Of a DNA stretch of 49,270 bases, positions 15,249-42,200 are shown one piece after another. The notes under the pieces are model-generated. The model ran no database searches. It saw nothing but the letters and a program-made list of their open reading frames with translations, and was not told the origin of the DNA. Made by a program: the position numbers and the translations under genes. How positions within the stretch are numbered: position 1 is the stretch's first letter; every line of letters begins with the position of its first letter. Origin of the DNA: a virus (lineage: Duplodnaviria > Caudoviricetes); IMG/VR virus record IMGVR_UViG_3300032305_002440, positions 1-49,270 of that record. One strand, written 5' to 3'.

Positions 15249-15974
15249 ATGATCATAGGAATATCTGGGAAAAAACAATCTGGCAAGTCTACTAGTGGTA
15301 ATTTTATGTATTCTCTTATGATGGTAGAATCTGGAGTTACAGATAAGGCTTCCATTAACTGGATGGGACAGATAGAGGTATCCGACCTGTTCGGAGATAA
15401 AAACTATAAGGGACAATTCGACCCCTGCAATAGAAATATATCTGATTGGAATATTAAAAAAGCTTTTCAAGTCTTAGATCCAATTATTAAGATATATAAC
15501 TTTGCTGATATACTCAAACAAAATATCTGTATAGACATACTAGGTATGACATATGCTCAGTGCTATGGTTCTGATGCGGAGAAAAATGAAATCACAGACT
15601 TGCAGTGGGGTGGTGAAAAGCTGACAGCCAGAGACGCTATGCAACTCATAGGAACCGATCTGTTCAGAAAGCTTAAAACAAACGTGTGGGCTTCTGCAAC
15701 TTTAAAAAAGATAGACAAAGAAAAACCTAGAATATCCATTATCACAGACTGTAGATTTCCCAATGAAGTAGATGCTATAAAAGAATATGGTGGAGCAGTA
15801 GTAAGATTAACAAGAAAATACGACTCATCTACTCATACTAGCGAAACAATATTAGATCAAGATCAATATGACTGGAATAATTTTAATCATGTGATAAATA
15901 ACCAAGAAATGTCTATCTATGATCAATGCGTAGAATTACAAAATATCCTCAAGCTATATTTAGGAAATCAATGA
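15249..15974 (+). CDS. deoxynucleoside monophosphate kinase
   Basis: IIGISGKKQSGKST, FADILK, RDAMQLIGTDLFR, ITDCRFPNE, HTSE. Confidence 0.85.
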   Translation: MIIGISGKKQSGKSTSGNFMYSLMMVESGVTDKASINWMGQIEVSDLFGDKNYKGQFDPCNRNISDWNIKKAFQVLDPIIKIYNFADILKQNICIDILGMTYAQCYGSDAEKNEITDLQWGGEKLTARDAMQLIGTDLFRKLKTNVWASATLKKIDKEKPRISIITDCRFPNEVDAIKEYGGAVVRLTRKYDSSTHTSETILDQDQYDWNNFNHVINNQEMSIYDQCVELQNILKLYLGNQ

Positions 15975-17023
15975 TTATTACTTATTTTAGATCTTCCAGT
16001 TTCAATACTCACTCTATGTGTGAGCAGCAATACTATTTGGAATATGTACTAGGGTGGAGATCTCCCTCTGGACAGAAAGCTGACAAGGGAACTATTACTC
16101 ATAAGGTATTAGAAATTTTAGCTGTAATTAAAAAGGCACAGCAAGACAACCAAGAGTCTATTATAGATGATGTTGTAGGGGAATTAAACGTTAATGATTA
16201 TTCACTAGATGCTATTACTGAGAAAGTTTATAATCACTACTCCTCTCATAGTCCTCATCATAAATGGACAGCTAAAGACCACAAAGACTGCCATAACTGG
16301 GTATACAAGGCTATAGAATTTAATAATGGGATGTTTGATCCAAGAAATAGAAACATACTATGTCCAGAACAACACTTTGATTTTGAAATAAAGAAACCCT
16401 GGGCATCATACTCATTTGATACACAGGATGGCAAGGATGGAAAAATTTCTGGAAATTTGGCCTTAAAAGGCACTATTGACTTGATCACGCTGGTCAACGA
16501 TAATACCATAGAGGTCATCGACTGGAAAACAGGAAGAAGGTTGGACTGGGCCACAGGAGAAGAAAAGACACAAGAAAAATTAGAAAGAGATCCTCAACTT
16601 AGGATATATCATTATGCTATTAGCCACTTATATCCTAATATAGAGCATATTATTTTTTCAATATACTTTATCAATGATGGTGGTCCGTTTTCGATTTGTT
16701 TCGATAAAAAAGACTTAGCTGAAACTGAGAATATGCTAAGACAAAAGTTTGAAGTTATTAAGAAAACTAAGAAACCAAAACTACATAAGAGCTGGATGTG
16801 TACAAAATTATGCCACTTTGGAAAAACAACGTTCGACAACACCCATGTACAACCATTAACAGAATATAGAAATGGTCAAGTATGTGGTTCAGGTTCAACA
16901 ATGACCAAATGCGAACAAATAAAACATGACATCGAATTATACGGTATTAATTCAGTAACCAATGAGTATAAAAACAAGAACCACTCATTTGGACAATATA
17001 AAGCACCAGGAAGCACCACTTAA
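15971..17023 (+). CDS. Cas4/AddB-like PD-(D/E)XK exonuclease
   Basis: SSS...CEQQYY, GTITHKVLE, GTIDL...VIDWKTG, QLRIY, C-terminal Cys cluster; ATG 15971 overlaps upstream stop. Confidence 0.8.
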   Translation: MIITYFRSSSFNTHSMCEQQYYLEYVLGWRSPSGQKADKGTITHKVLEILAVIKKAQQDNQESIIDDVVGELNVNDYSLDAITEKVYNHYSSHSPHHKWTAKDHKDCHNWVYKAIEFNNGMFDPRNRNILCPEQHFDFEIKKPWASYSFDTQDGKDGKISGNLALKGTIDLITLVNDNTIEVIDWKTGRRLDWATGEEKTQEKLERDPQLRIYHYAISHLYPNIEHIIFSIYFINDGGPFSICFDKKDLAETENMLRQKFEVIKKTKKPKLHKSWMCTKLCHFGKTTFDNTHVQPLTEYRNGQVCGSGSTMTKCEQIKHDIELYGINSVTNEYKNKNHSFGQYKAPGSTT

Positions 17024-17024
17024 T

Positions 17025-17030
17025 AAGGAG
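17025..17030 (+). promoter_or_regulatory. Shine-Dalgarno site for the true dnaE-N start (ATG 17039)
   Basis: AAGGAG 8 nt upstream of ATG 17039; no comparable SD before TTG 17103. Confidence 0.8.
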
Positions 17031-17038
17031 ACAAATTG

Positions 17039-18938
17039 ATGGGCGTGAATAGGAAATATATTCCTTTACACGTCCATTCTTAGGGAATCCCACTATTCTC
17101 TATTGGATGGACTTAGTAAAACTACACAGATAGCAAACAGGTGCTCTAAAATAGAAGCTAGGGCGTGTGCGTTAACAGACCACGGAAACATAGCTGGGGC
17201 TGTTAAGTTTTATGGTGATATGTTAAAAAGTGATATTAAACCGATATTAGGATGTGAATTATATATTTGTGATCAAAATCCAGCTATACAAGAAACATCA
17301 AATAGAAAACTTTCTCACTTTATTGTCTTGGCTAAAAACTATAAAGGATGGAAAAATTTAATTCGTATAGTATCTGAGTCCAATAGGCCCGATTATTTTT
17401 ATCACAAACCAAGGCTAGATATTGCAACTCTAAGAGAGATTGTAGATCCAGATAATATGCTAGCTATTGTTGGACATCTTGGTTCTACATTAGCTAATAA
17501 GATTATAGATGAAAACAACACCATTAACAAAGACTATATAAATATTGGGTCCAACTTTATTAGCAGTATTAAAGATATATTTGGCAAGAATAATGTCTTT
17601 CTTGAGGCACAATTAATGGACAAAGATAATCTACCTTTGCAAATTAGTCTGACGGGTGCTATAAGGGACTTGGGAAAAGAGACAAACACCAAGGTTATCT
17701 GTACTCCAGATGCGCACTACGCGGAAAGAGATGACGCTATGGATCAGAGGATACTCTTGTGCAATAACTTAAAGACAACCCTGAATAAGATAAATAGTAA
17801 GATCCAAAATCAGGAATCTATAGGTATGGATTGTTTCTTTCTATCTGACAACTATCACATTCCTTCTCAAGAAGAAATATCTAATTTGCACACAGAGCAA
17901 GAAATAGATAACACTAATATAGTTGCAGATATGTGTGAACAATATGATATCTTAGATAAGCCACATTTGCCGTCGTTTGATTGTCCAAAGGGATATAATC
18001 CCGATGAATATCTTAGACAATTATGTAGAGATGGCTGGAGAGAGAAAATACAAAATAATATACCTAAAGAGGATCAAGAAACATATGTACAGAGAATCAA
18101 ATCTGAGTTAGAAGTTTTACAGGGTGCTGGTTTGTCTAGTTACTTTTTAATAGTGCAAGACATTGTGAGACACGTTAAAGAACAAGGATGGCTTCCTGGT
18201 CCGGGAAGAGGTAGTGCGGCTGGATGCTTGGTCTCTTATTTGATAGGTATCACCAGTATTAATCCCATAAAATATGATCTATTATTTGAAAGATTTTACA
18301 ATGCCGGTAGAAATACCAAAGACAGAATTAGTATGCCTGATATAGATATAGACGTACCAATTAATAAAAGAGAATATGTAATTGAATACATAAAGTCTAA
18401 GTACGGGCGAGATAAGGTTTCTCAAATGATTACCTTTAATACCATGAAAGGTAGAGGTGCTCTAAAAGATGTGTTGAGAGCTTATGATAATATAAGTTTT
18501 GAAGAAATGAACCGTATAACAAAACACATCCCAGACGAAGCTAAAATAGCAGACGAACTACAAGAAATGAAAGATGACACGGGGGAATCTTCTATTATCC
18601 GCTGGGCACTAGAAAACAATGTTGACAAACTGAAGGAGTGGTGCTATATTAATGAAGACGGAGCGTTGGCTGGCCCTCTAGCCAAGCGATTTGAACAAGC
18701 AATACGCTTAGAGGGAACAAAGTCTAATCAGTCAAAACATGCTGCTGGTGTATTAATTAGTAGTCAAGGATTAGCAGATATGTGTCCTATGGTTTATGAT
18801 ACAAGAAATAAGCAAACTATTGCAGGTATGGAAATGCAAGATTTGGAAGCTATAGGTGGCATAAAATTTGATATCCTTGGTGTTGCTATGTTAGATAAAA
18901 TTATGACCATATCAGATTTTCTAAAAAATGGAGAATAA
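17039..18938 (+). CDS. dnaE: DNA polymerase III alpha, N-terminal part (PHP plus palm/thumb); reading frame interrupted by 10 nt at 17081-17090
   Basis: 17039-17080 encodes MGVNRKYIPLHVHS then TAG; from 17091 the +1 frame gives HYSLLDGLS...ALTDHGN, KPILGCE, DAHY, GPGRGSAAG, LLFERF, MPDIDID, KHAAG, KFDILG. Confidence 0.88.
17072..17112 (+). other. 16-bp mRNA hairpin enclosing the stop codon and 10-nt coding gap (candidate recoding signal)
   Basis: GTCCATTC (17072-79) pairs with GGATGGAC (17105-12); TAGGGAAT (17081-88) pairs with ATTCTCTA (17095-102); one G-U pair per stem; loop CCCACT. Confidence 0.65.
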
Positions 18939-18940
18939 AC

Positions 18941-19123
18941 ATGACTGATAAAAAATTTAGTGAACTAAATATCAATGATAGATTTGTTGTAAACGGAATG
19001 GAATATATCAAGACTGATACTGTCAGAGTTAGTTGTTGTAAGTCTATAAATTGTCAAGAAGCAGGTAATTCTGCTGTTAAATCTTTTTTCCCAGAGGATG
19101 CCACGGTACAAGTAAATGCCTAA
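18941..19123 (+). CDS. small hypothetical protein between the dnaE halves
   Basis: 60 aa, GGAG RBS, overlaps the exonuclease start. Confidence 0.65.
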   Translation: MTDKKFSELNINDRFVVNGMEYIKTDTVRVSCCKSINCQEAGNSAVKSFFPEDATVQVNA

Positions 19124-19808
19124 TTATCAAAAAATTTGTGTTTTCGATATGGAGACTGATGGATCCAATCCAGATGTCTGTAGTCCAGTTCAAATTGCTG
19201 CCGTTATTATAGATCCTCTTAGGTTAGAAATTATTCAAGACTCAGAGTTTAATGTGACTATCAAGCCAGAAAAACTGGAAGAAGATGATAGTTATACATA
19301 TTCAGACTCTGACATCCTAGAATTTCATTCTAAAGTAAGAGGATGCTCTAAAGATGATATTCTCACGACATGGAAAGAGTATACTCCACAAAACCAATCG
19401 TGGAAGCTGTTCTTATCATATCTAGAGAAATACCACATTAGATCTGATAAAAGATCTTGCTTCACTGCTCCTATAGCAGCAGGATATAATATCAATAGGT
19501 TTGATTTGCGTATTGTAGATAGACTCAGTAAAAAATACAATAATCTTAATAAAGAAGGCAGATCATCTTTATTTTATCCTAGAGATGTTATTGACGTGAT
19601 GAATGTTATATTCTATTGGTTTGAGTCAAACAACGAACTCAAAAACTATACTCTAGATAATCTTAGAGACTACCTAGGACTATCAAAAGAGGGTGCTCAT
19701 GATGCTCTAAAGGATGTTAAAGATACGGCAGAAATACTTATTAGATTTCTTAGACTTCACAGAAATCTTGGTAAGAAAGTTAAATTTAAAGGATCGTTTA
19801 CCAAATAA
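19116..19808 (+). CDS. DEDDh 3'-5' exonuclease (DnaQ/epsilon-like)
   Basis: VFDMETDG (ExoI), GYNINRFD (ExoII), AHDALKD (ExoIII). Confidence 0.88.
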   Translation: MPNYQKICVFDMETDGSNPDVCSPVQIAAVIIDPLRLEIIQDSEFNVTIKPEKLEEDDSYTYSDSDILEFHSKVRGCSKDDILTTWKEYTPQNQSWKLFLSYLEKYHIRSDKRSCFTAPIAAGYNINRFDLRIVDRLSKKYNNLNKEGRSSLFYPRDVIDVMNVIFYWFESNNELKNYTLDNLRDYLGLSKEGAHDALKDVKDTAEILIRFLRLHRNLGKKVKFKGSFTK

Positions 19809-19818
19809 ATCTTATTGT

Positions 19819-21441
19819 ATGTCAAGTTATTACTCGTTTGATTGTGGATGTAAATTCCCGGTAGCAGAGCAATCCTCTGTTCCTAAAATAATTTTTGATC
19901 CAAACATAGACAACATAAGTCTTTCTTGTTCTAGAACATGGGAACTTATATCAGAAGGAAATACCAAAGGATGTTTTCAGCTAGAGTCTAGGCTCGGCCA
20001 GTCTATGGCAAAGAAACTAAAGCCAGAAAATATAGAACAGCTATCTGCTCTTATTAGTATTCTGAGACCAGGATGCTTGGAGGCGTATAGAGATGGCAAA
20101 AGCGTATCTAATCATTATATAGATAGAAAAAATGGATTAGAAGCTATAGATTATTTTCATCCAGCACTAGAACCTATTCTGAAGGCAACGTATGGAGAGA
20201 TGTGTTTTCAAGAGCAGGCTATGGGAATAGCAAAGTCTATAGCAGGATTCGATCTTCAAGAAGCAGACGAACTCAGAAAAGCCATCGGTAAAAAACAGGC
20301 AGATAAAATGGCTAAAGTTAAAACACAGTTTATAGATGGTTGTGCAAGGATGTCTATCGTAACAACAGGGGAAGCTGAACAGATATTCGGATGGATTGAA
20401 AAAAGTCAAAGATATTTATTTAATGCTAGTCATGCAGTGTCTTATGCTATTAATGCTTATCTATCTGCTTATGCTAAGGCTCATTTCCCTAGAATATTTT
20501 TTGCATCATATTTAAGATATGCTAAGGATAAAATTGATCCACAGCAAGAAATTAAAGAACTGGTAAGAAATGCTGGTAGTATGTCTATTAATATAAGAAT
20601 ACCCGATCTTAGAAATATGAATGAGTTTTTCTATATTAAGAATAAAGAGATTTATTTTGGTCTTACAGATATTAAGTCTGTTGGTGCCTCAGTATATAAA
20701 AAATTACTAGAAATCTGTAAAGATAAAGACTTATCTACGTTGTCATGGTATGATATTCTGATAGATATTCTATTAAACATTAATTCTACAGCGGCTAAGG
20801 CTTTGATATCCTGCGGTGCTCTTGACTATAATAAAAAAACTAGAACAGAAATGTTATTTGAGCTAGATATAATCTCGTCTTTAACTAAGAAAGAGATAGA
20901 GAAAATTAATGAACTAAGAGCAAACAAAGAATATAAGAACTTGTCAGATATTCTAACAGAAATTTTGAACACATTCAAATTTACTGGAAAAAGAAAAGAA
21001 ACGATCAATAATCTTATTCATACGATCAAGCATCCTCCGTTCTCATTAGCTGACAAAATAGAGTGGATATCAGACTCTGAAAATAGTCTTCTAGGCGTGG
21101 CTCTGACATGCTCTAAACTAGATACATATGATACCACAATGGCGAACTGTGACTGTCAGACATTCAAAACATCCACTTACAATAAAAATATCATTATTGC
21201 TGGAGAGATTTCCTCCATCAATTTTATTAAAACCAAAAGAGGGAAAAATCCAGGACAGGAAATGGCGTTTATTGGCATAGAAGATTCTGTCGGAATATTA
21301 GATTCATTAATAATGTTTCCAGATCAACTAGTCGAATACAAGCATCATCTCTTTGAAGGAAATATCCTAGTATTTTTTGGAGATAAAACAAAAACAGGAG
21401 ATGGCTTAGTTGTGTCAAAGTGTTTTGAACCCATGACTTGA
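19819..21441 (+). CDS. dnaE: DNA polymerase III alpha, C-terminal part (fingers, HhH, OB fold)
   Basis: GNTKGCFQLES, LRPG, TYGEMCFQEQ, ADELRKAIGKK, FNASHAVSY, GLTDIKSVG, MAFIGIED; ATG 19819 avoids a long overlap. Confidence 0.88.
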   Translation: MSSYYSFDCGCKFPVAEQSSVPKIIFDPNIDNISLSCSRTWELISEGNTKGCFQLESRLGQSMAKKLKPENIEQLSALISILRPGCLEAYRDGKSVSNHYIDRKNGLEAIDYFHPALEPILKATYGEMCFQEQAMGIAKSIAGFDLQEADELRKAIGKKQADKMAKVKTQFIDGCARMSIVTTGEAEQIFGWIEKSQRYLFNASHAVSYAINAYLSAYAKAHFPRIFFASYLRYAKDKIDPQQEIKELVRNAGSMSINIRIPDLRNMNEFFYIKNKEIYFGLTDIKSVGASVYKKLLEICKDKDLSTLSWYDILIDILLNINSTAAKALISCGALDYNKKTRTEMLFELDIISSLTKKEIEKINELRANKEYKNLSDILTEILNTFKFTGKRKETINNLIHTIKHPPFSLADKIEWISDSENSLLGVALTCSKLDTYDTTMANCDCQTFKTSTYNKNIIIAGEISSINFIKTKRGKNPGQEMAFIGIEDSVGILDSLIMFPDQLVEYKHHLFEGNILVFFGDKTKTGDGLVVSKCFEPMT

Positions 21442-21465
21442 CACCCTAGGCTCCTGATATATAAT
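21438..21465 (+). promoter_or_regulatory. consensus sigma70 promoter for ssb
   Basis: TTGACA (21438-43), 16-nt spacer, TATAAT (21460-65). Confidence 0.75.
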
Positions 21466-21513
21466 AGTAATGTGACGGTTTGGTATTTTAAACACTTTAT
21501 GGAGATTAGAATT

Positions 21514-21891
21514 ATGAATATTGTTTTACTAAAGGGAAATCTTGCTAGGGATCCAGAGCTACGAGTTGTCGGAAGTGGGGATAAGCAAACTTCTGTTGTT
21601 AATTTTACTGTAGCAACATCTCGTGAGTATACAAAGAATAACGGAGAGAAGGACAAGATTACTTCCTTTATCAATTGCGAAGCTTGGGATTCTGGTGCCG
21701 AAGTGATTGGCGAGTCGTTTAAGAAGGGTGATCTGGTCTTGATCGAAGGATCATTGCGTAATGATTCGTGGGAAAAGGATGGAGTCAAGCATAATACTCT
21801 CAAGGTTAGAGTAAATAATTTTTCCAAGATTACAAAGCTATCTAGGGCAACAGCTAAGGATTCTGATAGTAAAGAAGCTGTCGCATTCTGA
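21514..21891 (+). CDS. ssb: single-stranded DNA-binding protein
   Basis: MNIVLLKGNLARDPELR, FTVAT, FINCEAW, KKGDLVLIEGSL; GGAG at 21501-04. Confidence 0.93.
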   Translation: MNIVLLKGNLARDPELRVVGSGDKQTSVVNFTVATSREYTKNNGEKDKITSFINCEAWDSGAEVIGESFKKGDLVLIEGSLRNDSWEKDGVKHNTLKVRVNNFSKITKLSRATAKDSDSKEAVAF

Positions 21892-21921
21892 ATATAGTGG
21901 TCATGTAAGACCAATAAGATC

Positions 21922-21947
21922 GGGGGTCGCTCAAGACCCCCTTTTTT
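21922..21947 (+). terminator. intrinsic terminator after ssb
   Basis: GGGGGTC-GCTCAA-GACCCCC followed by TTTTTT. Confidence 0.9.
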
Positions 21948-21994
21948 ATATCTTTTTTACACGGACAAGACAAGATAAGATAATTATAGCATCC

Positions 21995-23659
21995 ATGATT
22001 ACAAATAATAAAAAACTTAAGATATTAATGTGTTCAGAAGCCAGTTTTTTAAGTTCTGGTTTTGGTGTTTATGCAAAAGAGATACTGTCTAGGCTCTACG
22101 ATACTGGAAAATATGAGATTGCAGAATTTGCATCTTACGGATTTGTTAATGATCCCAGAGATACATCCATAAGATGGAGATACTATGCCAATGCTGTTAA
22201 ATCAGAAGATCCAAGATACAAAGAGTATATGTCCAGAGCAGACAATCAATTTGGAAGATGGCGTTTTGAAAAGGTTCTGTTAGATTTTAAGCCAGATGTG
22301 GTTATAGACGTAAGAGACTATTGGATGAATTCTTATCAGAGATTGTCTCCACTAAGAAGATTTTTCCATTGGATCCTTATGCCAACCGTAGACTCTGCAC
22401 CACAGCAAGAAGAATGGATTGATACCTTTTTATCTGCTGATAGTATTTTTACATATTCTGACTGGGGTGCTGATGTTTTAAAGAAACAGTCCCATAATAA
22501 AATCAACTATATAGATACAGCTTCTCCGGGCGTTGATCTTTTAACATTCAAACCACTTACCGCTCAAGACAAAGAGATTACGAGAAAATCTCTAGGAATT
22601 CCCGATAATGCTTTTGTTATCGGCTCTGTTATGAGAAATCAAAAGCGTAAACTTATACCAGAATTGTTTAATGTTCTTGGCTCTATTCTAAATGATGATA
22701 AAATCTCAGACGATCTGAAAAATAATATATACCTATATCTGCATACAAGCTATCCAGATGCCGGTTGGGATCTTCCACAAATACTTAAAGAATACGGATG
22801 TATCAACAGAGTACTATTCTCTTATATCTGTCAAAAGTGTGGTTTTATAAAGGCAAGTCCATTTGTTGGTCCAACAAAAGCCTGTCCTAAATGTATAGAA
22901 AAAAGCATGTCTCTTTCGTCTGTCACGAACGGAGCATCTACCAAAGACCTTGCACAGATCTACAACACGTTCGATCTATATGTACAATATTCTATTTGCG
23001 AAGGTTTTGGGATGCCACAAGTTGAGGCTGCGTCCTGTGGTATTCCTGTAGCTACAGTTAATTATAGTGCTATGTGTGATATTATTAAGAAACTAGAAGC
23101 GCATCCAGTGCCGATAGCAACATATTTTAAAGAATTAGAAACACAAGCCCTAAGAACATATCCAGACAATAACGATTTAATAAACTATATAGTGGATTTT
23201 TATAGCAGAAATGATAAAGAATTTTTGTCTAAAAAAATTAGAGCACTAACGGAGTTGCATTATAATTGGGATGACATAGCCAAAAAATGGGAACGATATC
23301 TAGACAATCTATCTATGACTCATGAATCCAAATGGAATGATCCTTCCAACATCATGAAGAAAATAGATCCTACCGCTACTAGTAGTATGTCTAATGTAGA
23401 TATCATAAAATACATATTTGATCAACATCTTAATGAAGATATATTTTGCATAGATAAGACAGCTTTAGAAATGCTCAAACAAGCTGATTATGGCTTTACT
23501 ATTAATGGCATGAGCATAGTTGGATATGAGAAAAAAGATATCGTGGAATATTTTAACACTATCATAGACAATAATAACCAAGCAGAATATGCTCGTATTA
23601 ATCATTTAAAATTTAATGACGACTATATTGAATACGCAAATATTAAAGACAGAAAATGA
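21995..23659 (+). CDS. GT-B (GT4-like) glycosyltransferase with Cys4 insertion
   Basis: SGFGVY, PGVDLLTFKP, RNQKRKLIP, EGFGMPQVEAASCGIPV; CQKC...CPKC insert. Confidence 0.85.
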   Translation: MITNNKKLKILMCSEASFLSSGFGVYAKEILSRLYDTGKYEIAEFASYGFVNDPRDTSIRWRYYANAVKSEDPRYKEYMSRADNQFGRWRFEKVLLDFKPDVVIDVRDYWMNSYQRLSPLRRFFHWILMPTVDSAPQQEEWIDTFLSADSIFTYSDWGADVLKKQSHNKINYIDTASPGVDLLTFKPLTAQDKEITRKSLGIPDNAFVIGSVMRNQKRKLIPELFNVLGSILNDDKISDDLKNNIYLYLHTSYPDAGWDLPQILKEYGCINRVLFSYICQKCGFIKASPFVGPTKACPKCIEKSMSLSSVTNGASTKDLAQIYNTFDLYVQYSICEGFGMPQVEAASCGIPVATVNYSAMCDIIKKLEAHPVPIATYFKELETQALRTYPDNNDLINYIVDFYSRNDKEFLSKKIRALTELHYNWDDIAKKWERYLDNLSMTHESKWNDPSNIMKKIDPTATSSMSNVDIIKYIFDQHLNEDIFCIDKTALEMLKQADYGFTINGMSIVGYEKKDIVEYFNTIIDNNNQAEYARINHLKFNDDYIEYANIKDRK

Positions 23660-32239: not shown

Positions 32240-35200
32240 TTATTCTATAAATGGTCCATCAAAATATTCATAAGGTATCCATTCCCACATTTCCTTTGTT
32301 TCTGCTATTTCAGAATTTTTGATCTCTATACCATCAACACTACCAAAATATGATCTAAAGATCATCTCGTTTTGTACTTTGAAAAACCCTGATGGCTCAA
32401 TAACTTTACCAAAATCTTTTCCGGGACTAAAATCTACGCATCTCCATACAGATAGTCCATTGTAAATAGTTCCTCCAGGAGGAGGTACAGTATCTTTTCC
32501 CAGACCACCATTATAATCATAAACATATCTTTGATATATAGGATCTATTGTTTTTAATTTTCTTGGTATAATTCTAAACTTCATATAGACACTATTTGAA
32601 GAATCTAAATTAAATACATCTCTTACCAATCCCTCTTTCTGTCCAACCAATTTAGGATATAGATACCTTTCTCTAACTGTTACAAGAGTGTCCCTAAAAG
32701 AATCCTCACAAGATAAAAAGAATTTTTTCTTTATCTCGTTACTTAAGTATCCATAATTAACCCACTCTGTTATGTCGGGGTATTTTTGTTTCTCTTCATC
32801 TACTTTTTTATTTATATATTCAAAACTAATACCGGGCAAATCAGATCGATCTATATCAAAATCTATACCACCTTGAGAATCTACTGTTCCACACACAGAG
32901 TTACATTCTGGATACTGATAGTATTCAACGATTGGAGAACAAGCATATGCTGTTTTTTCTAAAATTCTAGGAATAGCTTCTTCTGCAAGAGAACAAGTTT
33001 GAGTAGCGTCAATATTAAACCAGTAATAATTTTTAGTTTTATATTTTACTGTCCACGAATTTGTATCCAATTCTATTTCCATCATTGGAAGAACATTAGG
33101 AGAAGATTGATTATCATCATTATTTTCTAATATTTTTATAAGTCTGCTTCTTTGGACAGACAAATATTCTAATTTGTTTTTGGCTGCTCTTTTTTTGCAT
33201 TGGGATGCGGGATGGTCTATTTTCTCATTGCAGAATGCTGGGTCTGAGGGAAGGTTATTATAATACGTTATTAAATCTGGAATATTATCAATACTATCAA
33301 CAGATCTGGTCATCAGCTGACTGCTGGGTATTCCGGTAACTGATATGATATCTATTCTGCTCTCAATGCTTGTTTTTTGTGAATCAGTAAGTTTTTGTAC
33401 TGGGGTATATTTGTAATAATCGTTTTCAAAAGATATCTCTCCAGATGATGCTATATTTGTAAATTGATTAGATTTTAAATCCATAAAGTGGTACGTTTGT
33501 CTATCAGGCAGTATATTATTTTCTATCAGGCTAATATCCAGATTTTTTTCATCCTGCTTCGATATGCCACTAGCAATATTTAGTATATAGGATGAAGCAT
33601 CTTTTGTGTAATCATAGCTATTTATGGCAAACGGATAAGCTGATAATAGATTTTCTCTAGTGGTTGACGAAGAGAAGGAAATGGTCGTAGTAGTATTGCC
33701 TGAACCTGTGATATATACGTCGTTAAATTTAAACTTATTATTTTCGTGATTATTCAACATCTCGTAGACTTGTTCAAGATGATTGCATTCATGCCCTATG
33801 TATGAATAAGAATCTGGATCAACATAAGGTGTGCCATATCCATAGTTACCTTCTCCAGTTATAGTATGATATATATTTGGGGGCTTGTTGGTGTCTAGTT
33901 CTGATGATGCTTTTTGTAAGCCCCATTTGCCTATTTGGCAGTCATCATTAAAAGTCTCTTTATCAGAATATACCAACAATACGTTACTACTATTCTTTTT
34001 TATAAAACCACTATCAATATTTTCTAGCTCACTATCTATAACTAATATAGTATAAGAACCATCTGTTATGTTTATAAGATATTTATCAGATATTGTTTTT
34101 GTGGCTGGATTTTCTAATTCTTCATTTGCCGAAAGAGTAATACTATCATTAATATCAAAAAAATTGTAAGCTCTAGCTCCTTTAATTTTTAGTATTTTTT
34201 TATCTTCAATATTTTCAATTGATATATTACTAGAGCTATTATTATTACCAAATTTATTTTTAATTAAGAAAGCCATATCAGAACTATCTGGAAATCTAGT
34301 CCAGACAAGAGTTTTAACACAATATAGTCCGTTTTCTGTTGATACTGTCTGTCCGGATAGTCTTACAATATCTCCCTCCCGAAAGCTTAATGTTTGGAAT
34401 CCTGTAGCTGCGGTGCCTATTGTTTGTGTTAAACCAACTCTTGCTACATTAGCGTCGAAAGTATATTTGATATCACTTAATCCAACTAAATTTTCTATGT
34501 CATCTACTATGGCAAATTTAAATAAAGATAGTTTTTTAGCATTAACTCCATCTAGTTTCATATATCTATATTTCTTAAGTTTTAAAATATCAGAATTTTC
34601 ATATTTATATATTGGAACTTCCATTTTATACCAAAAGATTTTGTCCTTACTAAGCAGTACAACAGCCTTATCTGCATATCCCTGAGCAACCGCCTCATAT
34701 CCTGGTTGGAAAAAATTTCTTTCTACTTCTTCTTGCATTCTCTGAAATCTCAAATCGTATAACATACTAATAATAGGGTCTCCACGACCTCCTAAACTAG
34801 CTTGAAAGGCAATTTGCCAAGTTGCTGCCATAGCACCAACTAATGTGAAAAATGGAGTAAATGAAAAAAACACAAAAGGGAATTTTATTTCTTGATATGT
34901 TAACGGTCTAGATAGTTCATCGTCATTAATATATTTGCAATAATAGTTTATATTAGCGATATAGTTAAAAGGAGCATTGATATTAACTTTGGGCAGCAAA
35001 TACTCTTTATCTGTAAAATCTGCTATAAAATTATATCCCTTGAGTGTCGAGGTACTATTATTAGAGTAGTCAAAATGACTTCTTGAATTTTTATTGTGAA
35101 ACTTTTTTGTTTTTTCTGTATGTACTATCAAATCCCAAGAACATATGCTATTTGCTACAGTATTGCTAGATCTTTCCGTATAAAATTTAGACAAGCCAGA

Positions 35201-38200
35201 TAGCTCCGAATTATTAACTACATTATCCATAGCTAGTATTTTATCTGAATTTCCTAAAACATAAACCCTAAGAGTAAAAGAAGTATTTTTAAGTGGTATG
35301 TTTTTGAACTTAGCAAAAGTTGCTGAATTTATAGGAATATTGTTGTGCATTATTCCTTTTTTAGGCTTTGCTGAGTCTGTATCGTTTTTTCCAAATACAG
35401 AAATTGTAGGAGAAATACTTCCATCATTTTTTAGTATCTCATTGTGTTTTGATGGCGTATTATCATATTTATTTATATCATGAAAAACAGTACTATAGTT
35501 ATAATTATCGCTAAAAATCATATTAAAGTTCATAGAATACTTGTCTAAACCTTCTTGATTATATAGATATAAGACTCTGGTATTTGGTGCAGTAGTCGTG
35601 TTTGTGGTATTTAAAAGATTTATATAGTTTGTTATGTCGCTATTTGTGTTTGTTTTATTATTGTGTATGAATATATTATTAAAATCTGGCTCCTCAGGTA
35701 GCGATGCATTATGTATTTCAAGGGCAAAGATTAGATTTTTGGGATTTGGATAATTTAAAAAATTAATCTTGAGTTCTATATCTTTAATGGTTAATGTGTC
35801 TAAATTTACAGAAGCTGAAGACGGAAGCATTCCATAAGCAACAGTAGGTATTCCGCCATATAGTTCATTTATATTTTCTACACATTTAAATGTTTCTTCA
35901 TTCTCTATGTCTAAGTGTTCGTCTAGATATAAATCATCAATGTATTCTTGAGCTCTGTAGGAGATTCCATTAAGATTACGATATCCGTGATTAATACTAT
36001 GCTCACTATAAAAAGAGGTAAGATCTTCTATCTTCTTTATTAAAATTCTACTAGCATAAGAATTGTAGGAAGTATTTGTTCCTATGGTACAACCTCTCAT
36101 ATCAAAAATACCATTACCTCTAAAATAATAAGATTTATATCTATACATTTTGTATCTCTGAACAGAGGTGATATTCTCTCCGTTTCCCTGACTCAATGAA
36201 CTATAAGCTGAAGATCCAACGTTATTGTTTATTTCTGGATAGTCTGTTGTATTGCTCACAGCCGGAAACCAACCAGAATTCGGATGAAAATAACCCTTTT
36301 TGAGTTCTATAGTACCAGTTACTGGTATGTCCATAAGATGACATCGTATCTTAGTTTTTTCTCCTCCCATGTCATTTCTGGTTTCCAAAACCGGCAATAC
36401 AACCGGATTATTTGCTATTATGGGATTATTAGACCTTCCCTTTCCTCCCCAGTATCCATTTGGCAGTTTTTTCACAGATAGCAGTTTTCTAGAATCTCCT
36501 TCAAAAATAGGATGATATGGTATTTCCACACCTATAGCCTGGATCACTTCGTAAGAAAAACCTCCGTATGATTTTATTCCTGGAGATAATACCGTAGAAA
36601 TTTTTGGGAATTTATAACTTTGTCTAAATTCTACAGTTGTTCTATTCCCATCGTCATCATATTCGTAGCCCTTTCCCAGAAAAGTATTTGTATCACCGAA
36701 TCTGTCTTGTCTAAAGTATCTTGCGGCAAATGTATTAATTCCAAAAGGCTTTTCTCTTGCCCTTACAATTTTATCTTGATAAAAACTTTTACATTTAGAA
36801 TACTTAGATCCGTATCTCATATTATCTATACTTATAGAATTTATTCTAACGTATGTGTTTAATGTCTCGAATTTCATTGAAAAAGAAGAATTTTCTACTT
36901 CTCTAATCATACGGTCATCTTCTGCAACATCATCTAATTTTAGTGCTATTTTCGAATTTAGTAATCTTCCTGGTTTGGCAACAATGGATTGTTGTTGTGT
37001 TTGTGATATTGTCTCTACGTCGCTATCTAATATCCATACCAAGCCTAATTTATTGACAGCAAACTGTCTTAGATTTGTGATTAGTGCGTTGTATTTTTTT
37101 GTGGGCGGATTTACTGGGTATGAATATTTTGTAGTTCTGGCAGGAACCGAGGTGTCACAATTGCCTATATATACTCTCATAATATCTGAAGACTTTAAAA
37201 CAGTAGATCTAGTAACTTGACATTCTATTGTATATAGTCCTTCTTTTTTGATATATAATATAGTATCAGAATCATTAGAAATATTATTTCTTTTTAGAAA
37301 ATCTATTCTACCATTAACATTATAATTACTAAACTTTAAACACTGAGGACCGTCTATCAGCTGCCATAAAAAAGAATCTTCAATATTTCCTTCTTCAAAT
37401 TTTAAATCTATTCTCATTTCTCCGTCTCTGTCCGGAGTAAATGGTAGTACTATATCTTTTTCAAGATTAACCCTCGCTCTCTCTGACCTGCTGTCTAAGG
37501 TGATGTCCCAAGGTATATCTATTTTATCTTTTCTTGTAGTGTTTGAGGACGATATTCTAAGAGATTGTGATTTTAATCTGTTGCTGGAGTCTATGTCTAG
37601 ACTGTTTCTAATAATCAGGTCTCCGATGTTATATGCAAATTTATTGTAGATATATGCAGGAATAGCCGTGGTAGAACCTGTTAGGTTTTTATCACAAAAA
37701 GTTTTGAGATTAACATCAAAATATGCATGTGGGCCATTATCTAATGTTGGGACAAATTTGATTTTTTTAATATAGTTTTTATCTATTCTCAAATCCGCCC
37801 CGTACTTCATAAGCATTTTTTTACATAGGTCAGATGGTGTTCTGATATAATTGATACTATTAGTTTGATTTTCTATTTTAGATGTTGATCGTTGTAGAAA
37901 AGTATATATGATAGAAATTATAGATAGTAACTCTTGAATTTCTTCTTCTGCGCTAGTTTTTGCAGGCGCGTTTAAATAAGCGTTTATACTACTTTGTATA
38001 TTGCTATCATATAATGAATTAATAGAAACTCTATCTACGGATGGTCCTGTAGAGAGTACCGAACACAGTTTTTTAAGTTTTTCTTGGTATACTACTGTAC
38101 CTATTGAAGTCTTAGTTCGTACGCGATTGATCGACAAGGCATTATAAATAGCTCTATATATATGATACAAAGCTGGCGAGAGATATGATTTGGACGGCAT

Positions 38201-39247
38201 CTTGACAGGTCTGTGGGTTCTGTAGTCATCTTTTTCTCTCTCGTTTAAAAAATAGCTATAGCATTCACCGTCTGATATCCATATTTTACTATCTGATATT
38301 ACAAAATTAGTAGAAGAGTCTCCTACAAAATTTTTATTATAGTGTGCATAAAATGTTAAATCTTTATAGTTTGTAGCTAAATTTTTAGTTGATAGATCTA
38401 TGGCATCACTACCAAAACTAAACTTCGGAGGATTATGAGAAAAATCTTTTGGGCTCTTATCCAAAAATTTAACAGATTTATCATCTATTTTAATAATATT
38501 ATCTGTTTTATTTAAAACTATTTCTCCACTTACTGTTGAATAGTCACTAACAGGAATCAGCTTTGTATACGGAGGAACTTCTGATAACTTATATTGTTTG
38601 GTTTCACCACTACTCACAGGATTTCTCTTATACCAAAAAAGAACACCATACTCTACTTCTAAATAAGAAAGGTTTGAGTTTATTATCCAATTAGATGACA
38701 AAGAAACACCACTAGCATTAACAGCATCATCATCGTCTAAAATTTTCCAATTGTTTAGTTTGGGAGAGTCTATTGATACGAAGTTCTCTATACCAAAAAG
38801 CTTGGTTCCTATAACATTCCCAGCAAGTATTTCTTTACTAAAGACATGATCATCATTTTTTACAAATAACGGTAACCAACAATCGCTTGATGAAAAATTC
38901 TGATTATCGAATATGGACTTCATAGAGTCTATGCGAATGTTTACAGCAGAAGAAGTATTGATCCTGTTGCCTTGTGGGTCTAAAAATTCTCCATTAGAAT
39001 TAACAGATTTGCCGTCCTCGTCTGTGCATGATCTGTCTCCTAATCCGTCTGGTCCTCCGTCTCCGCAAGTTACTTGTTTTTCTGTTTTACTATATTCTCC
39101 TTCGTAAGAGATAACGCATTTATTTGTTGTGTCCGTAGAACCAGTTCTAGTATCACTCAACATGTCCACAATAGTATATTTTTTAAGATCATTCAAAAAA
39201 GAATTACTATATATAGAACATGTTTTGCTATCATCTATAGGATACAT
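32240..39247 (-). CDS. very large probable virion/tail protein (2335 aa)
   Basis: Uninterrupted ORF; PKD-like WQLIDGP...EGLYTIECQV; fibre-like GDIVRLSGQTVSTENGLY...WTR. Confidence 0.65.
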   Translation of the reverse strand: MYPIDDSKTCSIYSNSFLNDLKKYTIVDMLSDTRTGSTDTTNKCVISYEGEYSKTEKQVTCGDGGPDGLGDRSCTDEDGKSVNSNGEFLDPQGNRINTSSAVNIRIDSMKSIFDNQNFSSSDCWLPLFVKNDDHVFSKEILAGNVIGTKLFGIENFVSIDSPKLNNWKILDDDDAVNASGVSLSSNWIINSNLSYLEVEYGVLFWYKRNPVSSGETKQYKLSEVPPYTKLIPVSDYSTVSGEIVLNKTDNIIKIDDKSVKFLDKSPKDFSHNPPKFSFGSDAIDLSTKNLATNYKDLTFYAHYNKNFVGDSSTNFVISDSKIWISDGECYSYFLNEREKDDYRTHRPVKMPSKSYLSPALYHIYRAIYNALSINRVRTKTSIGTVVYQEKLKKLCSVLSTGPSVDRVSINSLYDSNIQSSINAYLNAPAKTSAEEEIQELLSIISIIYTFLQRSTSKIENQTNSINYIRTPSDLCKKMLMKYGADLRIDKNYIKKIKFVPTLDNGPHAYFDVNLKTFCDKNLTGSTTAIPAYIYNKFAYNIGDLIIRNSLDIDSSNRLKSQSLRISSSNTTRKDKIDIPWDITLDSRSERARVNLEKDIVLPFTPDRDGEMRIDLKFEEGNIEDSFLWQLIDGPQCLKFSNYNVNGRIDFLKRNNISNDSDTILYIKKEGLYTIECQVTRSTVLKSSDIMRVYIGNCDTSVPARTTKYSYPVNPPTKKYNALITNLRQFAVNKLGLVWILDSDVETISQTQQQSIVAKPGRLLNSKIALKLDDVAEDDRMIREVENSSFSMKFETLNTYVRINSISIDNMRYGSKYSKCKSFYQDKIVRAREKPFGINTFAARYFRQDRFGDTNTFLGKGYEYDDDGNRTTVEFRQSYKFPKISTVLSPGIKSYGGFSYEVIQAIGVEIPYHPIFEGDSRKLLSVKKLPNGYWGGKGRSNNPIIANNPVVLPVLETRNDMGGEKTKIRCHLMDIPVTGTIELKKGYFHPNSGWFPAVSNTTDYPEINNNVGSSAYSSLSQGNGENITSVQRYKMYRYKSYYFRGNGIFDMRGCTIGTNTSYNSYASRILIKKIEDLTSFYSEHSINHGYRNLNGISYRAQEYIDDLYLDEHLDIENEETFKCVENINELYGGIPTVAYGMLPSSASVNLDTLTIKDIELKINFLNYPNPKNLIFALEIHNASLPEEPDFNNIFIHNNKTNTNSDITNYINLLNTTNTTTAPNTRVLYLYNQEGLDKYSMNFNMIFSDNYNYSTVFHDINKYDNTPSKHNEILKNDGSISPTISVFGKNDTDSAKPKKGIMHNNIPINSATFAKFKNIPLKNTSFTLRVYVLGNSDKILAMDNVVNNSELSGLSKFYTERSSNTVANSICSWDLIVHTEKTKKFHNKNSRSHFDYSNNSTSTLKGYNFIADFTDKEYLLPKVNINAPFNYIANINYYCKYINDDELSRPLTYQEIKFPFVFFSFTPFFTLVGAMAATWQIAFQASLGGRGDPIISMLYDLRFQRMQEEVERNFFQPGYEAVAQGYADKAVVLLSKDKIFWYKMEVPIYKYENSDILKLKKYRYMKLDGVNAKKLSLFKFAIVDDIENLVGLSDIKYTFDANVARVGLTQTIGTAATGFQTLSFREGDIVRLSGQTVSTENGLYCVKTLVWTRFPDSSDMAFLIKNKFGNNNSSSNISIENIEDKKILKIKGARAYNFFDINDSITLSANEELENPATKTISDKYLINITDGSYTILVIDSELENIDSGFIKKNSSNVLLVYSDKETFNDDCQIGKWGLQKASSELDTNKPPNIYHTITGEGNYGYGTPYVDPDSYSYIGHECNHLEQVYEMLNNHENNKFKFNDVYITGSGNTTTTISFSSSTTRENLLSAYPFAINSYDYTKDASSYILNIASGISKQDEKNLDISLIENNILPDRQTYHFMDLKSNQFTNIASSGEISFENDYYKYTPVQKLTDSQKTSIESRIDIISVTGIPSSQLMTRSVDSIDNIPDLITYYNNLPSDPAFCNEKIDHPASQCKKRAAKNKLEYLSVQRSRLIKILENNDDNQSSPNVLPMMEIELDTNSWTVKYKTKNYYWFNIDATQTCSLAEEAIPRILEKTAYACSPIVEYYQYPECNSVCGTVDSQGGIDFDIDRSDLPGISFEYINKKVDEEKQKYPDITEWVNYGYLSNEIKKKFFLSCEDSFRDTLVTVRERYLYPKLVGQKEGLVRDVFNLDSSNSVYMKFRIIPRKLKTIDPIYQRYVYDYNGGLGKDTVPPPGGTIYNGLSVWRCVDFSPGKDFGKVIEPSGFFKVQNEMIFRSYFGSVDGIEIKNSEIAETKEMWEWIPYEYFDGPFIE

Positions 39248-39249
39248 AA

Positions 39250-42200
39250 TTATTTACTCTTAACATTGGCAGTAGTTAATGTCCATACTCCGTTCATGAA
39301 CGTAAACAGGCCCTTTTTTCCAGGTTCCGCATTGAACTCAAAAGGATCTTCATAGGTTATATTAGATGTTGGTATTGCCTCTCCGCTTTTTCTTCCTTGT
39401 ACATAAGACATTTCTATTGTTGCACTTTTTCCGTAGGTTATATTGCCTCCTACAACGAACGTTTGCTTACTAACTGGCTCATAAAATCCGCTATCTTTAT
39501 CATATCTACATAGAAGTTTCGCTCCTCTCGGGGCTGTATATCCTCCTCGGTCTTTAACAAATACTAATCTTCTGGAATCAGCAGGTAATTTTTCTGTTGA
39601 GTACTCTAAGTCATCTAGAAATCCTCTTGCTGGATAAGTCTCATCATAGTCCTTAGATCTTGTCAAATCCTCTTCTAGCGTAACATAAACCATTTTATAT
39701 ATAGTCATAGCATCAGAAGACTTTGTAGTCCATACTTGTCTATTCTCATCCCATCTAAGATCTATTGGCCCCACTTTCCATAAATTAGGATGTTCTGCCC
39801 AATTTCTATAGAACTCTTTAAGTTTTTTCTTTTCTGACCATTTGTTATTTTCCCAAATTTGAGTTTTGCTTATGATATCTCCCAGATTGGTTCCAGTAAA
39901 ACCTCCCTCAAGCTCCATATCGTTTTCAAGCTTACATTTATATACATTAGTATCATCAGTAATTTTAAATATACTATTGTTTTGTAGAGTAATAGACATA
40001 TTAGGAACTTTATAATAATAATTTTGTTCCCAGAGAGGAGTGCCACTCTGATATGCGTCTGCCGCATCTAATCCTGTAGCAGGTGCTAAAACAAATATGT
40101 CTTTATTTTTTAATTCTTTGAATTTTACTGCGGATGAACTCTCTATAGTATCTTTAAGATAAAATCTTTTTGGATTACCATCTTTATCAACTCTGTATGG
40201 CTCATCAGCAGCATTGGGTACCGGAAAACCTTCTAAATCATATCCCCATCCGTGATATACTATTGGTCCTCTAAGACCAAAAAATCTTTGGTTATTTAAT
40301 TGACTTTTTTTACTCGGGTCGGCATTTAATAAGTCTTTGTGAAAATAATCAGCATTATATCCGCTACCGTACTCAGTTCCATCATTATTTTGCATATTTC
40401 CATCTGATTTAATAAATTTACCCATATTACAACGAGTATTTATTCCCCATCCCTTTTGCGGAGGAGTTTCTCCATGAGCCACCACTTCGATACTGTGTCT
40501 GCACTTGTCGTTAGAATGTGCGTTATAGTTTCTGAATTCCCCGTACGGAACAACTATAGGTTGTAAGCTAACTAAATTAATTGCTATTTCTTGACCACTA
40601 CTAGAACCACTTGATGTCGCGGTACTGGAAGCGCTACTAACAGATGAGGATGATCCAAGTTCTGTAATAACATTAATATCTTTTCTATTAGTAACTATAT
40701 ATGGAGGTAGAATTTCTAGAGATTGTGCTGATGCTGTTGTTGTAGCAGTTGTTGCTAAGCCTGTTTTTTTATTTACACAATATGGACATTGATATGATAC
40801 TGAGCCCATCGCGGTAGCACTAGTATATACTTGTTCTTTAATTAGTCCTGTATTGTTACAATAAGGACACTCCTTTCTTTGATATTTTTGTAAGGGATAT
40901 GTACTATAAAATTTTGTAGGATAAAATGATACTGGTGAAAATATGCCATCTAAACTCATTGCAGACTTTAAAGAATATTCTGGAACCAAATCTGCTGGTA
41001 CTTCTCTCGATTGATACATTCCGACAAATGCTGACCACCTGTTATTTCTAATAGATGTTCTGGCACGATTCCCTGCCGCTACAAATTCTTTTTCTGCAAT
41101 ATCCGAAGAATTAAATAGCCCGGCTTCGGCTCCGTTTTCCCCAGGATCTGCACCATAAGGCATTGTTAATGCAAAAGGAGTAACGGATGTCCCTCCAGTA
41201 TTTTCCTCGTTTGATCCAGCTGCTCTTCTGGTGGTTCTCATCTGATCCCTAAGCGTAGAAAAATCTTCTTTTTTGCTTGCTGGCATAGGCAAGAATGAAA
41301 AAGCTCTACCGCACATAACTTCTGTGGGACTAGTTCCATATAGTCCAGATTTTAAATTTTTAGAACCATAAGCACCACTGCTATTTTTTATACTGTGTAA
41401 TCTTTCCTGTTTCTCTTTATTTATTCTGTTTGTTAGTTTGTTGGTCTGTGTGGCTAGATCTCTATTTCGTTTGATATTTGCTGCTGCAAACTGCCGTATT
41501 CTATTGGCATTTTCTTTATTAAAAAGACCTAGTTTTCTAGTATGTGTTCTAAAATTATATGTGGTCCTTACTTGCTGAGGACTAATACTACACTGAATAT
41601 TGCTAACAATAGGAGCAAAAGAATTTGCATAAGCAGCATCTAGCACTATCACATTATAGGATAAATTAGTTGTTGTCGTAGATCTAGAAGGAATATTCGG
41701 AGCAACCACAACCTCTCCTACAATTGGAATATTTTCTAAAGGATTAGTAGTTGTTTCATATCTTTTTTGCGAATAGGGTAAGTTGACCACTCTTGGTGTA
41801 AAAACTTGGTTATTAATTTTTATAGCACCAGCTGGTGTCTGCGAATCATTATATACAAATGGAGATCCTAAACCAAGAATAGGAAGTCCTATAGTATCTA
41901 TTCTCGCAGTTTCTGTAATTTGTTGATAACTACTATTTGCTTGTATTTCTCCAAGAACAACGCTATCTAGTAAAGATACTCCTCCATAATTCCATGGTAC
42001 ATAATCTTCTTGAACTTCTACTTTAACTCCACCAATGAGATTTTCTACAGCACGAGAGGCCGCTTCATCACCTGCTCCTGGAAATATATTATTCTTAATC
42101 AGTTCAGGATAATTAGTCCATGGTCCATATGTATATTGATTTGACTTAACTGGAATACCGGCAAAATATGGGTGTGCAGCTTTCGGAGCCAACATAGCAT

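Follow-up and report, generated by a model that had tools for sequence, protein, structure and literature searches.

A stop-led insert in the dnaE gene of an uncultured phage: a probable miniature programmed ribosomal bypass of homing-cassette origin

The window analysed here (the whole stretch of DNA, 49,270 nt long) is a 49-kb piece, with 35% G+C, of the genome of an uncultured phage from a virus record. Its dnaE gene is interrupted near the 5' end by 10 nt that begin with a stop codon. From the comparison of related sequences, we consider it very probable that ribosomes cross this gap by programmed bypassing and that the element travels in a homing cassette, as a small-scale version of bacteriophage T4 gene 60. 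A preliminary description of this DNA had proposed such a bypass; it omitted the invariant stem-loop that runs from the start codon to the take-off codon, and the likely origin of the insert in an HNH homing cassette.

The dnaE gene lies in a replication cluster in which Pfam profiles identify RecA, DnaB, primase, a PD-(D/E)XK nuclease, a DEDD exonuclease and SSB. The features around the insert are these:

15926..17023, + strand: PD-(D/E)XK nuclease gene (Pfam PF12705, E 4e-18), left flank of the cassette
17022..17048, + strand: what is probably left of the 3' end of an HNH-like gene after its deletion; it supplies the Shine-Dalgarno sequence at 17025-17030, and its old stop would be the TGA at 17046
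17039..17083, + strand: ORF1, ending in TAG after 14 codons that include those for the first two PHP His residues (HVH) and for the take-off Ser
17039..17077, + strand: 5' stem-loop, start codon and 6 nt against the H-V-H codons, 9 bp, -17.9 kcal/mol
17051-55/17061-65, + strand: apical 5-bp helix of the 5' stem-loop
17078..17080, + strand: take-off codon TCT (Ser14), TCN in all 65 variants listed
17081..17090, + strand: 10-nt coding gap, consisting of TAG, a 4-nt spacer and the landing triplet TCC (17088-17090)
17081..17102, + strand: hairpin beginning at the stop codon, 8 bp with a 6-nt loop containing landing bases 2-3, -5.5 kcal/mol; predicted A-site stem-loop
17072-17112: extended stem of the stop hairpin, -17.7 kcal/mol, mutually exclusive with the 5' stem-loop
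17091..18938, + strand: ORF2, the remaining PHP domain and the polymerase palm (PF02811, PF07733); predicted hop product of 629 aa
19116..19808, + strand: DEDD exonuclease gene (PF00929), between the dnaE halves
19714..21441, + strand: C-terminal half of a two-piece DnaE (fingers, HhH; PF17657, PF14579)

The reading frames are as the preliminary description had them. A Shine-Dalgarno sequence (AAGGAG, 17025-17030) and the ATG at 17039 open a frame of 14 codons, MGVNRKYIPLHVHS, which ends in TCT (17078-17080) and is followed directly by TAG (17081-17083). Readthrough of this stop runs into TAG TAA after 11 more codons, and the +1 frame at the dnaE start contains a TGA at 17046 and does not encode HVH. 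The +1 frame reads ...ILRESHYSLLDG into the long ORF that ends at 18938. In this downstream frame, the PHP profile (PF02811) matches only from position 6 of 164. An uninterrupted relative (L006) aligns from its residue 4 to the DnaE proteins of Taq and M. tuberculosis with identical HxH-x-x-x-S-x-L-D-G spacing. When the 10 nt at 17081-17090 are removed, the window gene acquires, as had been claimed, a regular PHP start, with the spacing of 32 of the 42 protein-matched relatives, which are uninterrupted, and of the solved DnaE structures. The first PHP strand with its HxH, missing from the downstream frame, is, judging from these alignments, the one encoded in ORF1. The HxH His residues of PHP domains bind metal.

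Several other properties of the locus may be recorded here. Between 17039 and 21441, DnaE is split after the palm into two genes, which are separated by a 60-aa ORF and the DEDD exonuclease gene; the N-terminal half ends at the same place in most relatives, and the real start of the C-terminal half is probably at 19819. In L012-L015, the N-terminal half is cut again about 460 codons into dnaE, after GPGRG, by a break that looks like the N-part of a split intein (it starts with Cys-Phe-Leu); split inteins are the subject of PMC2677866, as far as its consulted part goes. In L028-L038, the palm has another break: the frame ends early, following ...SFPEFSIQTFKNGV, at a point about 423 codons into dnaE. 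Two very large ORFs of 2335 and 2044 aa occupy 32240-45384 on the minus strand, and no tRNA was found in the window. Recoding of TAG was rejected because other genes of the window end in TAG and relatives use TAA and TGA.

Because the source is a metagenomic assembly, the 10 nt might be an assembly error, as the preliminary description allowed. Strain L001, however, carries an identical insert while differing from the window at 12 of 390 downstream codons (378 identical, 10 synonymous, 2 non-synonymous). In run X6, from a separate study, one contig spans 16635-17600 without a gap and shows 17 substitutions, none of them listed between 16934 and 17140; this check, which is independent at the level of contigs, comes from the one of four sequencing runs examined that covered the site. 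Since a different strain and a contig of another study share the insert, it is real DNA. The gene also appears to be alive. Comparison of ORF2 with L002 and L004 gives synonymous to non-synonymous ratios of 156:58 and 164:58, as expected of a dnaE under purifying selection, and in four of four complete insert-carrying genomes the interrupted gene encodes the only DnaE, with neither PolA nor PolB. Purifying selection on what is the sole DNA polymerase in these genomes means that some rescue must occur. The best DnaE matches in cultured phages are below 33% identity.

The insert belongs to a family. A protein-based scan found 42 loci, 10 of them interrupted (all stop-led after HxH-Ser) and 32 not. 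Searching viral contigs, metagenomes and prokaryote genomes by pattern raised the total to at least 655 loci and at least 438 dnaE-like matches, which collapse to at least 65 distinct stop-led inserts and at least 104 uninterrupted 5' ends; four out-of-register matches and one in-frame sense insertion were dropped before the count of 65. Since most scans fixed HxH, TCN and SLLDG, and several also the stop, the sample is biased to that motif, and the counts that follow, which refer to the 65 and 104 sequences listed, are not counts of independent events because the variants are related. All listed inserts interrupt the same dnaE codon, after an ORF1 of 11-15 codons. Their gaps measure (number of variants in brackets) 5 (1), 6 (1), 7 (3), 8 (4), 9 (11), 10 (17), 11 (21), 12 (5), 14 (1) and 15 (1) nt, so that all three frames occur (18/20/27 by length modulo 3, 18 of 65 being in-frame), and they begin with TAA in 31, TAG in 26 and TGA in 8. 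No single frameshift, readthrough event or assembly error explains inserts in all three frames with all three stops.

The stop at the head of the insert is not a product of the search. A scan blind to stops gave 105 matches, of which 73 were dnaE-like: 67 stop-led inserts, five uninterrupted genes matched out of register and one 3-nt in-frame sense insertion. All 67 true inserts begin with a stop directly after the take-off codon. This codon is TCN in all 65 variants listed, and TCN was likewise the only take-off among the matches listed when the codon was left free. Upstream of it, Y-x-P-L-H is kept at the protein level in the 65, although Y/W/F, P/S and L are written in 4-7 codon forms, and downstream ORF2 is open across all available sequence in 65 of 65 (58-398 codons). 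With 46 distinct take-off-plus-gap strings among the listed variants, in addition to the open and conserved ORF2 and the sole polymerase of four complete genomes, a dead gene is no better an account than a misassembly, and we give the two together practically no weight. In a distant dnaE (L347), the motif is longer by one sense codon and reads H-N-H-S-C-V-G-S-L-L-D-G. Among bacterial genomes, one of 19 pattern matches was dnaE-like, in a short contig identical at the site to viral locus L053; this contig (L533, 8 kb, in a Chitinophagia MAG, with the 5' end of L053) is probably a binned piece of phage and at most a weak lead to a host.

A second alternative is a +1 frameshift at UCU-UAG, which would insert R-E-S in the window, the other insert lengths being served by readthrough or -1 shifts. 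The +1 frame of the window is indeed open from 17049 through the gap, and the landing frame is stop-free in 43 of the 47 out-of-frame inserts listed. Yet three different mechanisms would then be needed at one homologous site, given the lengths modulo 3, and re-pairing from UCU to CUU is poor. In the remaining 4 of 47, three of which have 10-nt gaps, a simple shift is blocked because the landing frame meets a stop within the gap. Moreover, a single in-frame sense insertion in the motif was seen among the 73 dnaE-like matches. We therefore judge frameshifting to be very unlikely.

Alternatively, ribosomes might terminate at the UAG and re-initiate at TTG 17103, in which case either the 14-aa peptide would act in trans to complement the protein or the enzyme could do without the first PHP strand. 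TTG stands at that Leu in 60 of the 65 variants listed, and DnaE is already in two pieces here, with a separate exonuclease gene. Against this, an SD-like 4-mer precedes the TTG in none of the 60, a loose Shine-Dalgarno sequence precedes some start in just 4 of 65, and TTG is also the commonest codon at this place in uninterrupted genes (56 of 104 listed). In addition, the codons between landing and TTG keep the residues of uninterrupted relatives (H/M, then Y/F). Re-initiation is, in our estimation, even less probable than a frameshift.

What a bypass would require of the codons at its two ends can be read from the landing triplets. The preliminary description had stressed matched Ser codons readable by one tRNA-Ser(GGA). 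This fits the window, where TCT/TCC is a wobble match, but it is not the rule: the closest relatives of the window land on TCA, and the 65 listed triplets comprise 46 TCN, 17 ACN or GCN, one TTT and one TGA. Thus, when the 5' ends of related dnaE genes are aligned, two anticipated hallmarks, a conserved stop and gaps of varying length, are present, while the third, matched codons, is limited to the 24 of 65 in which landing and take-off agree exactly. Change from TCT to TCA (13 variants) and first-base mismatch (17 variants) mean that a hop would need loose P-site pairing. Landing base 1 is paired in 43 of 60 listed, and its usual place in a stem can explain why it varies. Landing base 2, in contrast, is C in 63 of 65 listed, though bases 2-3 form an unpaired loop in 59 of 60. 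A conserved middle C is what re-pairing of tRNA-Ser with P-site latitude would predict; shared ancestry could contribute. Among the 65, the three take-offs that end in a purine have landing triplets ending in the same purine.

Two RNA structures accompany the insert. In the window, the fold of 17040-17130 has a z of -3.78, with 0 of 200 shuffles equally stable. The first 39 nt of dnaE fold at -17.9 kcal/mol, compared with -5.9 for the next best of the 39 gene starts of the window, and a single one of 1000 synonymous recodings makes the 5' stem-loop as stable. A 5' helix of at least 7 bp is present in 65 of 65 interrupted genes listed, as opposed to 4 of 104 uninterrupted ones; the median energies are -17.2 and -0.3 kcal/mol, respectively, and z falls below -2 against synonymous recoding in 55 of 65 versus 1 of 101. 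In all 65, the structure begins exactly at the in-frame start codon (ATG in 63, GTG in one, TTG in one) and reaches as far as the His codon that precedes take-off; the first seven pairs hold in 64-65 of 65. The GTG start pairs with a CAC His codon, and pairs survive even amino-acid changes. In 45 sequences of equal length, 98% of cells are paired, with two-sided changes at four of the nine pairs, while 0 of 500 shuffles score as high and slid controls reach 18-59%; the structure was derived from the same sequences on which pairing was scored, which favours it. The apical 5-bp helix ends 13 nt before the window's take-off codon, and at least five pairs are closed by 11 nt before take-off in 44 of the 65 variants listed, a count made without a control. 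Gap length does not track the energy of the 5' stem-loop (rho 0.05, p 0.69), which is why a strict ruler set by its strength is not supported. Since the stem-loop covers the start codon, it should lower initiation of an essential gene.

The second structure opens with the stop codon, and in it the gap is base-paired to the coding bases that follow. A stop hairpin of at least 5 bp, with compensatory changes, is found in 60 of the 65 variants listed when different registers are allowed, and the inner hairpin has fewer than 5 bp in the other 5; it is missing from the shortest gaps. In 60 of 60, the next Ser codon downstream has its synonymous third base in a pair, for which five types of base pair are used. 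By folding, the stop hairpin and the 5' stem-loop are two mutually exclusive folds, and an alternative 6-bp hairpin 3' of the landing triplet also folds in the window. Gaps of 5-15 nt in three frames, led by stops and bordered by two covarying hairpins, thus support the bypass that had been proposed, in which the hop itself is a step that we infer.

Conserved, covarying RNA structure around the insert would also suit a micro-intron, that is, a nuclease and a ligase that recognise the hairpins and cut 5-15 nt from the mRNA, and the imperfect landing codons would then become irrelevant. Such inserts, however, have no constant 3' boundary and go down to 5 nt, both ends lie on one arm of a hairpin, and the first triplet is any of the three stops, in frame, and never TGG in the 63 variants from scans that permitted TGG. 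No Rfam match was found at E up to 1 in 15500-22000, and with an insert of 10 nt this also leaves no sign of a group I or II intron or an intein at the site. RtcB together with an Rnl2-type ligase occurs in only one of the four complete insert-bearing genomes, although a host ligase could serve; in that genome (G003:C1:165013-169830) the two genes are close together. A search for T4 Rnl1-type ligases gave no match anywhere, not even in the controls, and therefore carries no weight. A micro-intron is therefore unlikely, if somewhat less so than the other alternatives, and we return to the bypass and to how it may have reached dnaE.

Immediately upstream of interrupted dnaE genes, a nuclease gene is in some cases found or has left traces. 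The PD-(D/E)XK nuclease gene is the usual upstream neighbour of dnaE in interrupted and uninterrupted relatives alike. In addition, an ORF of about 240 aa, whose stop overlaps the dnaE start, is complete in 9 of the 56 interrupted loci listed with flank and present as remnants in 6 more, versus one nuclease in 81 uninterrupted loci listed. It matches endonucleases of the HNH or endonuclease VII-like type (PHROG 3322, 374 and 1035; E 1e-14 to 1e-23), and its top Atlas cluster is an HNH family (0.94). Pfam and NCBIfam give no HNH match, Pfam detecting only an N-terminal HTH; no PDB sequence matches it, and its predicted structure has a mean pLDDT of 56, with the catalytic half below 50. By tblastn, 41 of the 56 interrupted loci show no trace of the nuclease, and no HNH homologue was found in the window. 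Of the HNH gene, the window appears to keep only the stretch AATAAGGAG.., which encodes the C-terminal N-K-E-K-I of intact HNH genes; the same codons form the Shine-Dalgarno sequence of dnaE.

The comparison of L256 with L440 points to how such a cassette may arrive. The two are 97.5% identical upstream and 95% (485/510) downstream but agree at 59 of 90 positions just after the gap, and a cassette of about 820 nt is present in L256 and absent from L440. Besides the nuclease, the 9-nt insert and a new dnaE start, the two differ over about 25 additional codons that have diverged, up to the TDHG motif. On a 132-row DnaE tree (FastTree), interrupted alleles are scattered, with 32 changes between the interrupted and uninterrupted states; the tree, which omitted rows below 250 aa and L430 (long branch), kept 54 of 65 interrupted and 79 of 104 uninterrupted genes. 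Monophyly of the insert carriers is rejected with p-AU 6e-7 on 40 of the 132 rows, chosen after the tree had been seen. A nuclease gene beside an altered site (a gene that the window itself lacks), a patchy distribution and a co-conversion tract are features of homing cassettes. It is thus likely that an HNH homing cassette brought in the insert, and this phage has probably lost the nuclease gene.

Three loci show other states of the site. L454 keeps the cassette Shine-Dalgarno sequence and start, with a weakened stem-loop and no insert, which is likely to be a precise loss of the insert. L452 has a cassette-type nuclease without insert or 5' stem-loop, possibly a pre-bypass state or another escape from cleavage. 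In L025 (2396-2971), an uninterrupted dnaE is preceded at this position by another, different gene of the endonuclease VII-like type, and the site seems to attract more than one nuclease.

From these data we propose the following course of events. The ribosome would arrive at UCU with UAG in the A site, where the stop hairpin would hinder the release factor. By then, the apical 5 bp of the 5' stem-loop, whose end lies 13 nt behind the P site, would have folded outside the exit channel. As the other 9 bp zipped up as far as the His codon, the mRNA would be drawn out and the ribosome pushed about 10 nt forward. The fully zipped helix would end at the base before take-off, leaving approximately the length of the gap between helix and P site. 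Peptidyl-tRNA-Ser would then pair anew with UCC (in many relatives, a match at two of the three bases would suffice), and translation would continue from CAC, yielding a PHP motif without a break. Together, the insert and the replaced first ~38 codons may protect the gene from re-cutting by the cassette nuclease, an enzyme whose activity is presumed from its protein matches. Other stimulators known from T4 were looked for: no KKYK-like nascent-peptide signal is conserved (the residues before the conserved Tyr vary, and the Tyr is equally common in uninterrupted genes), and there is no mini-SD 6 nt before landing in the window, where this position is taken by the take-off codon and stop. The claim that the hop gates polymerase synthesis found nothing in its support; persistence of the insert after loss of the nuclease (41 of 56 loci without trace) is explained equally well by the rarity of precise deletion as by regulation.

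We further favour, with less assurance than the bypass itself, a more general view, namely that this is a minimal device for bypassing and is widespread. A hairpin that the start codon itself closes would bar trailing ribosomes and, on zipping up, drive the lead ribosome 5-15 nt across a stop, hardly requiring matched codons or a peptide signal; natural in-frame stop-hops would be included, and homing endonucleases would have a third way, besides introns and inteins, of altering their target in an essential gene. If so, homing nucleases can hide a target site within an essential motif without splicing. The cassette of about 75 nt, in at least 65 natural versions with graded gaps, three stops, varied landings and an invariant, covarying 5' stem-loop, is an allelic series ready for testing whether RNA folding behind the ribosome drives the hop and sets its length. 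A practical consequence is that, in many large aquatic phages, the only DNA polymerase is cut short by gene callers.

Open-access papers and preprints, to which the literature search extended (subscription journals and supplements being outside its scope), yielded no report of bypassing in dnaE. As far as the consulted parts of these sources go, natural programmed bypassing is limited to T4 gene 60, including its homologues, to three Streptomyces terminase genes and to the byps of yeast mitochondria. The possibility of a bypass beside an HNH gene in the tape-measure gene of Cluster O mycobacteriophages was raised and left unresolved in the part consulted (PMC4351075). In the Streptomyces phage phiHau3 terminase, a 10-nt bypass was shown by MS with a UAA variant in E. 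coli (PMC10732093). As in dnaE, gaps of 7 and 10 nt lie there in a conserved motif of an essential phage gene; in contrast, that bypass is triggered by the rare sense codon UUA, is proposed to be regulatory and concerns three genes only, with no endonuclease described in the portion available. The Magnusiomyces mitochondrial byps share a spread like that of mobile elements and a tolerance of imperfect take-off/landing matches (PMC5009743; bioRxiv 10.1101/2022.08.31.505936), but span 27-55 nt and involve an unused sense codon and mitochondrial ribosomes. Synthetic stop-hops, in which 9 nt are read as one residue, have exactly the arrangement of the 6-nt variant TCT TAA TCT (L234, L566), and whereas a 2016 review states, in the text consulted, that no natural in-frame stop-hop is known (PMC5009743), 18 of the 65 inserts listed here are in-frame.

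The closest parallel is T4 gene 60 with MobA, again as described in the excerpts consulted. In the current model of its take-off, the top 5 bp of a 5' stem-loop form outside the exit channel and further pairing pulls the mRNA (PMC5009743; bioRxiv 10.1101/2024.12.09.627546), while a small A-site hairpin blocks termination and is pseudo-translocated by EF-G (PMC11194080). Bypassing there is strongly dependent on the nascent peptide (bioRxiv 10.1101/2024.12.09.627546; PMC11194080), and events at the mRNA exit site are named as its main unsolved problem (bioRxiv 10.1101/2024.12.09.627546). The MobA insert and the replaced flanking codons are reported to protect from re-cutting, with repeated insertion and later loss of the nuclease (bioRxiv 10.1101/2022.08.31.505936), a life cycle that, by analogy, the dnaE insert appears to have followed. 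Both systems have a stop right after take-off, a hairpin starting from the stop and a 5' stem-loop behind the ribosome, and in both the insert lies within a conserved metal-binding motif of a replication enzyme. In both, moreover, the endonuclease is free-standing, codons flanking the insert have been replaced, insertion has been repeated, and the nuclease was later lost. The dnaE insert is nevertheless not filed as a member of the MobA/gene 60 family because its target is dnaE and not a topoisomerase large subunit. It differs further in its gap of 5-15 nt (about 50 in T4), in its take-off at codon 11-15 (46 in T4), in having no KKYK peptide or mini-SD, and in its landing, which is often mismatched at base 1. 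Finally, its 5' stem-loop is found in 65 of 65 variants listed, whereas homologues of gene 60 are reported not to conserve theirs; it reaches from the start codon to 1 nt before take-off, compared with 9 nt for the end of the T4 helix (bioRxiv 10.1101/2024.12.09.627546).
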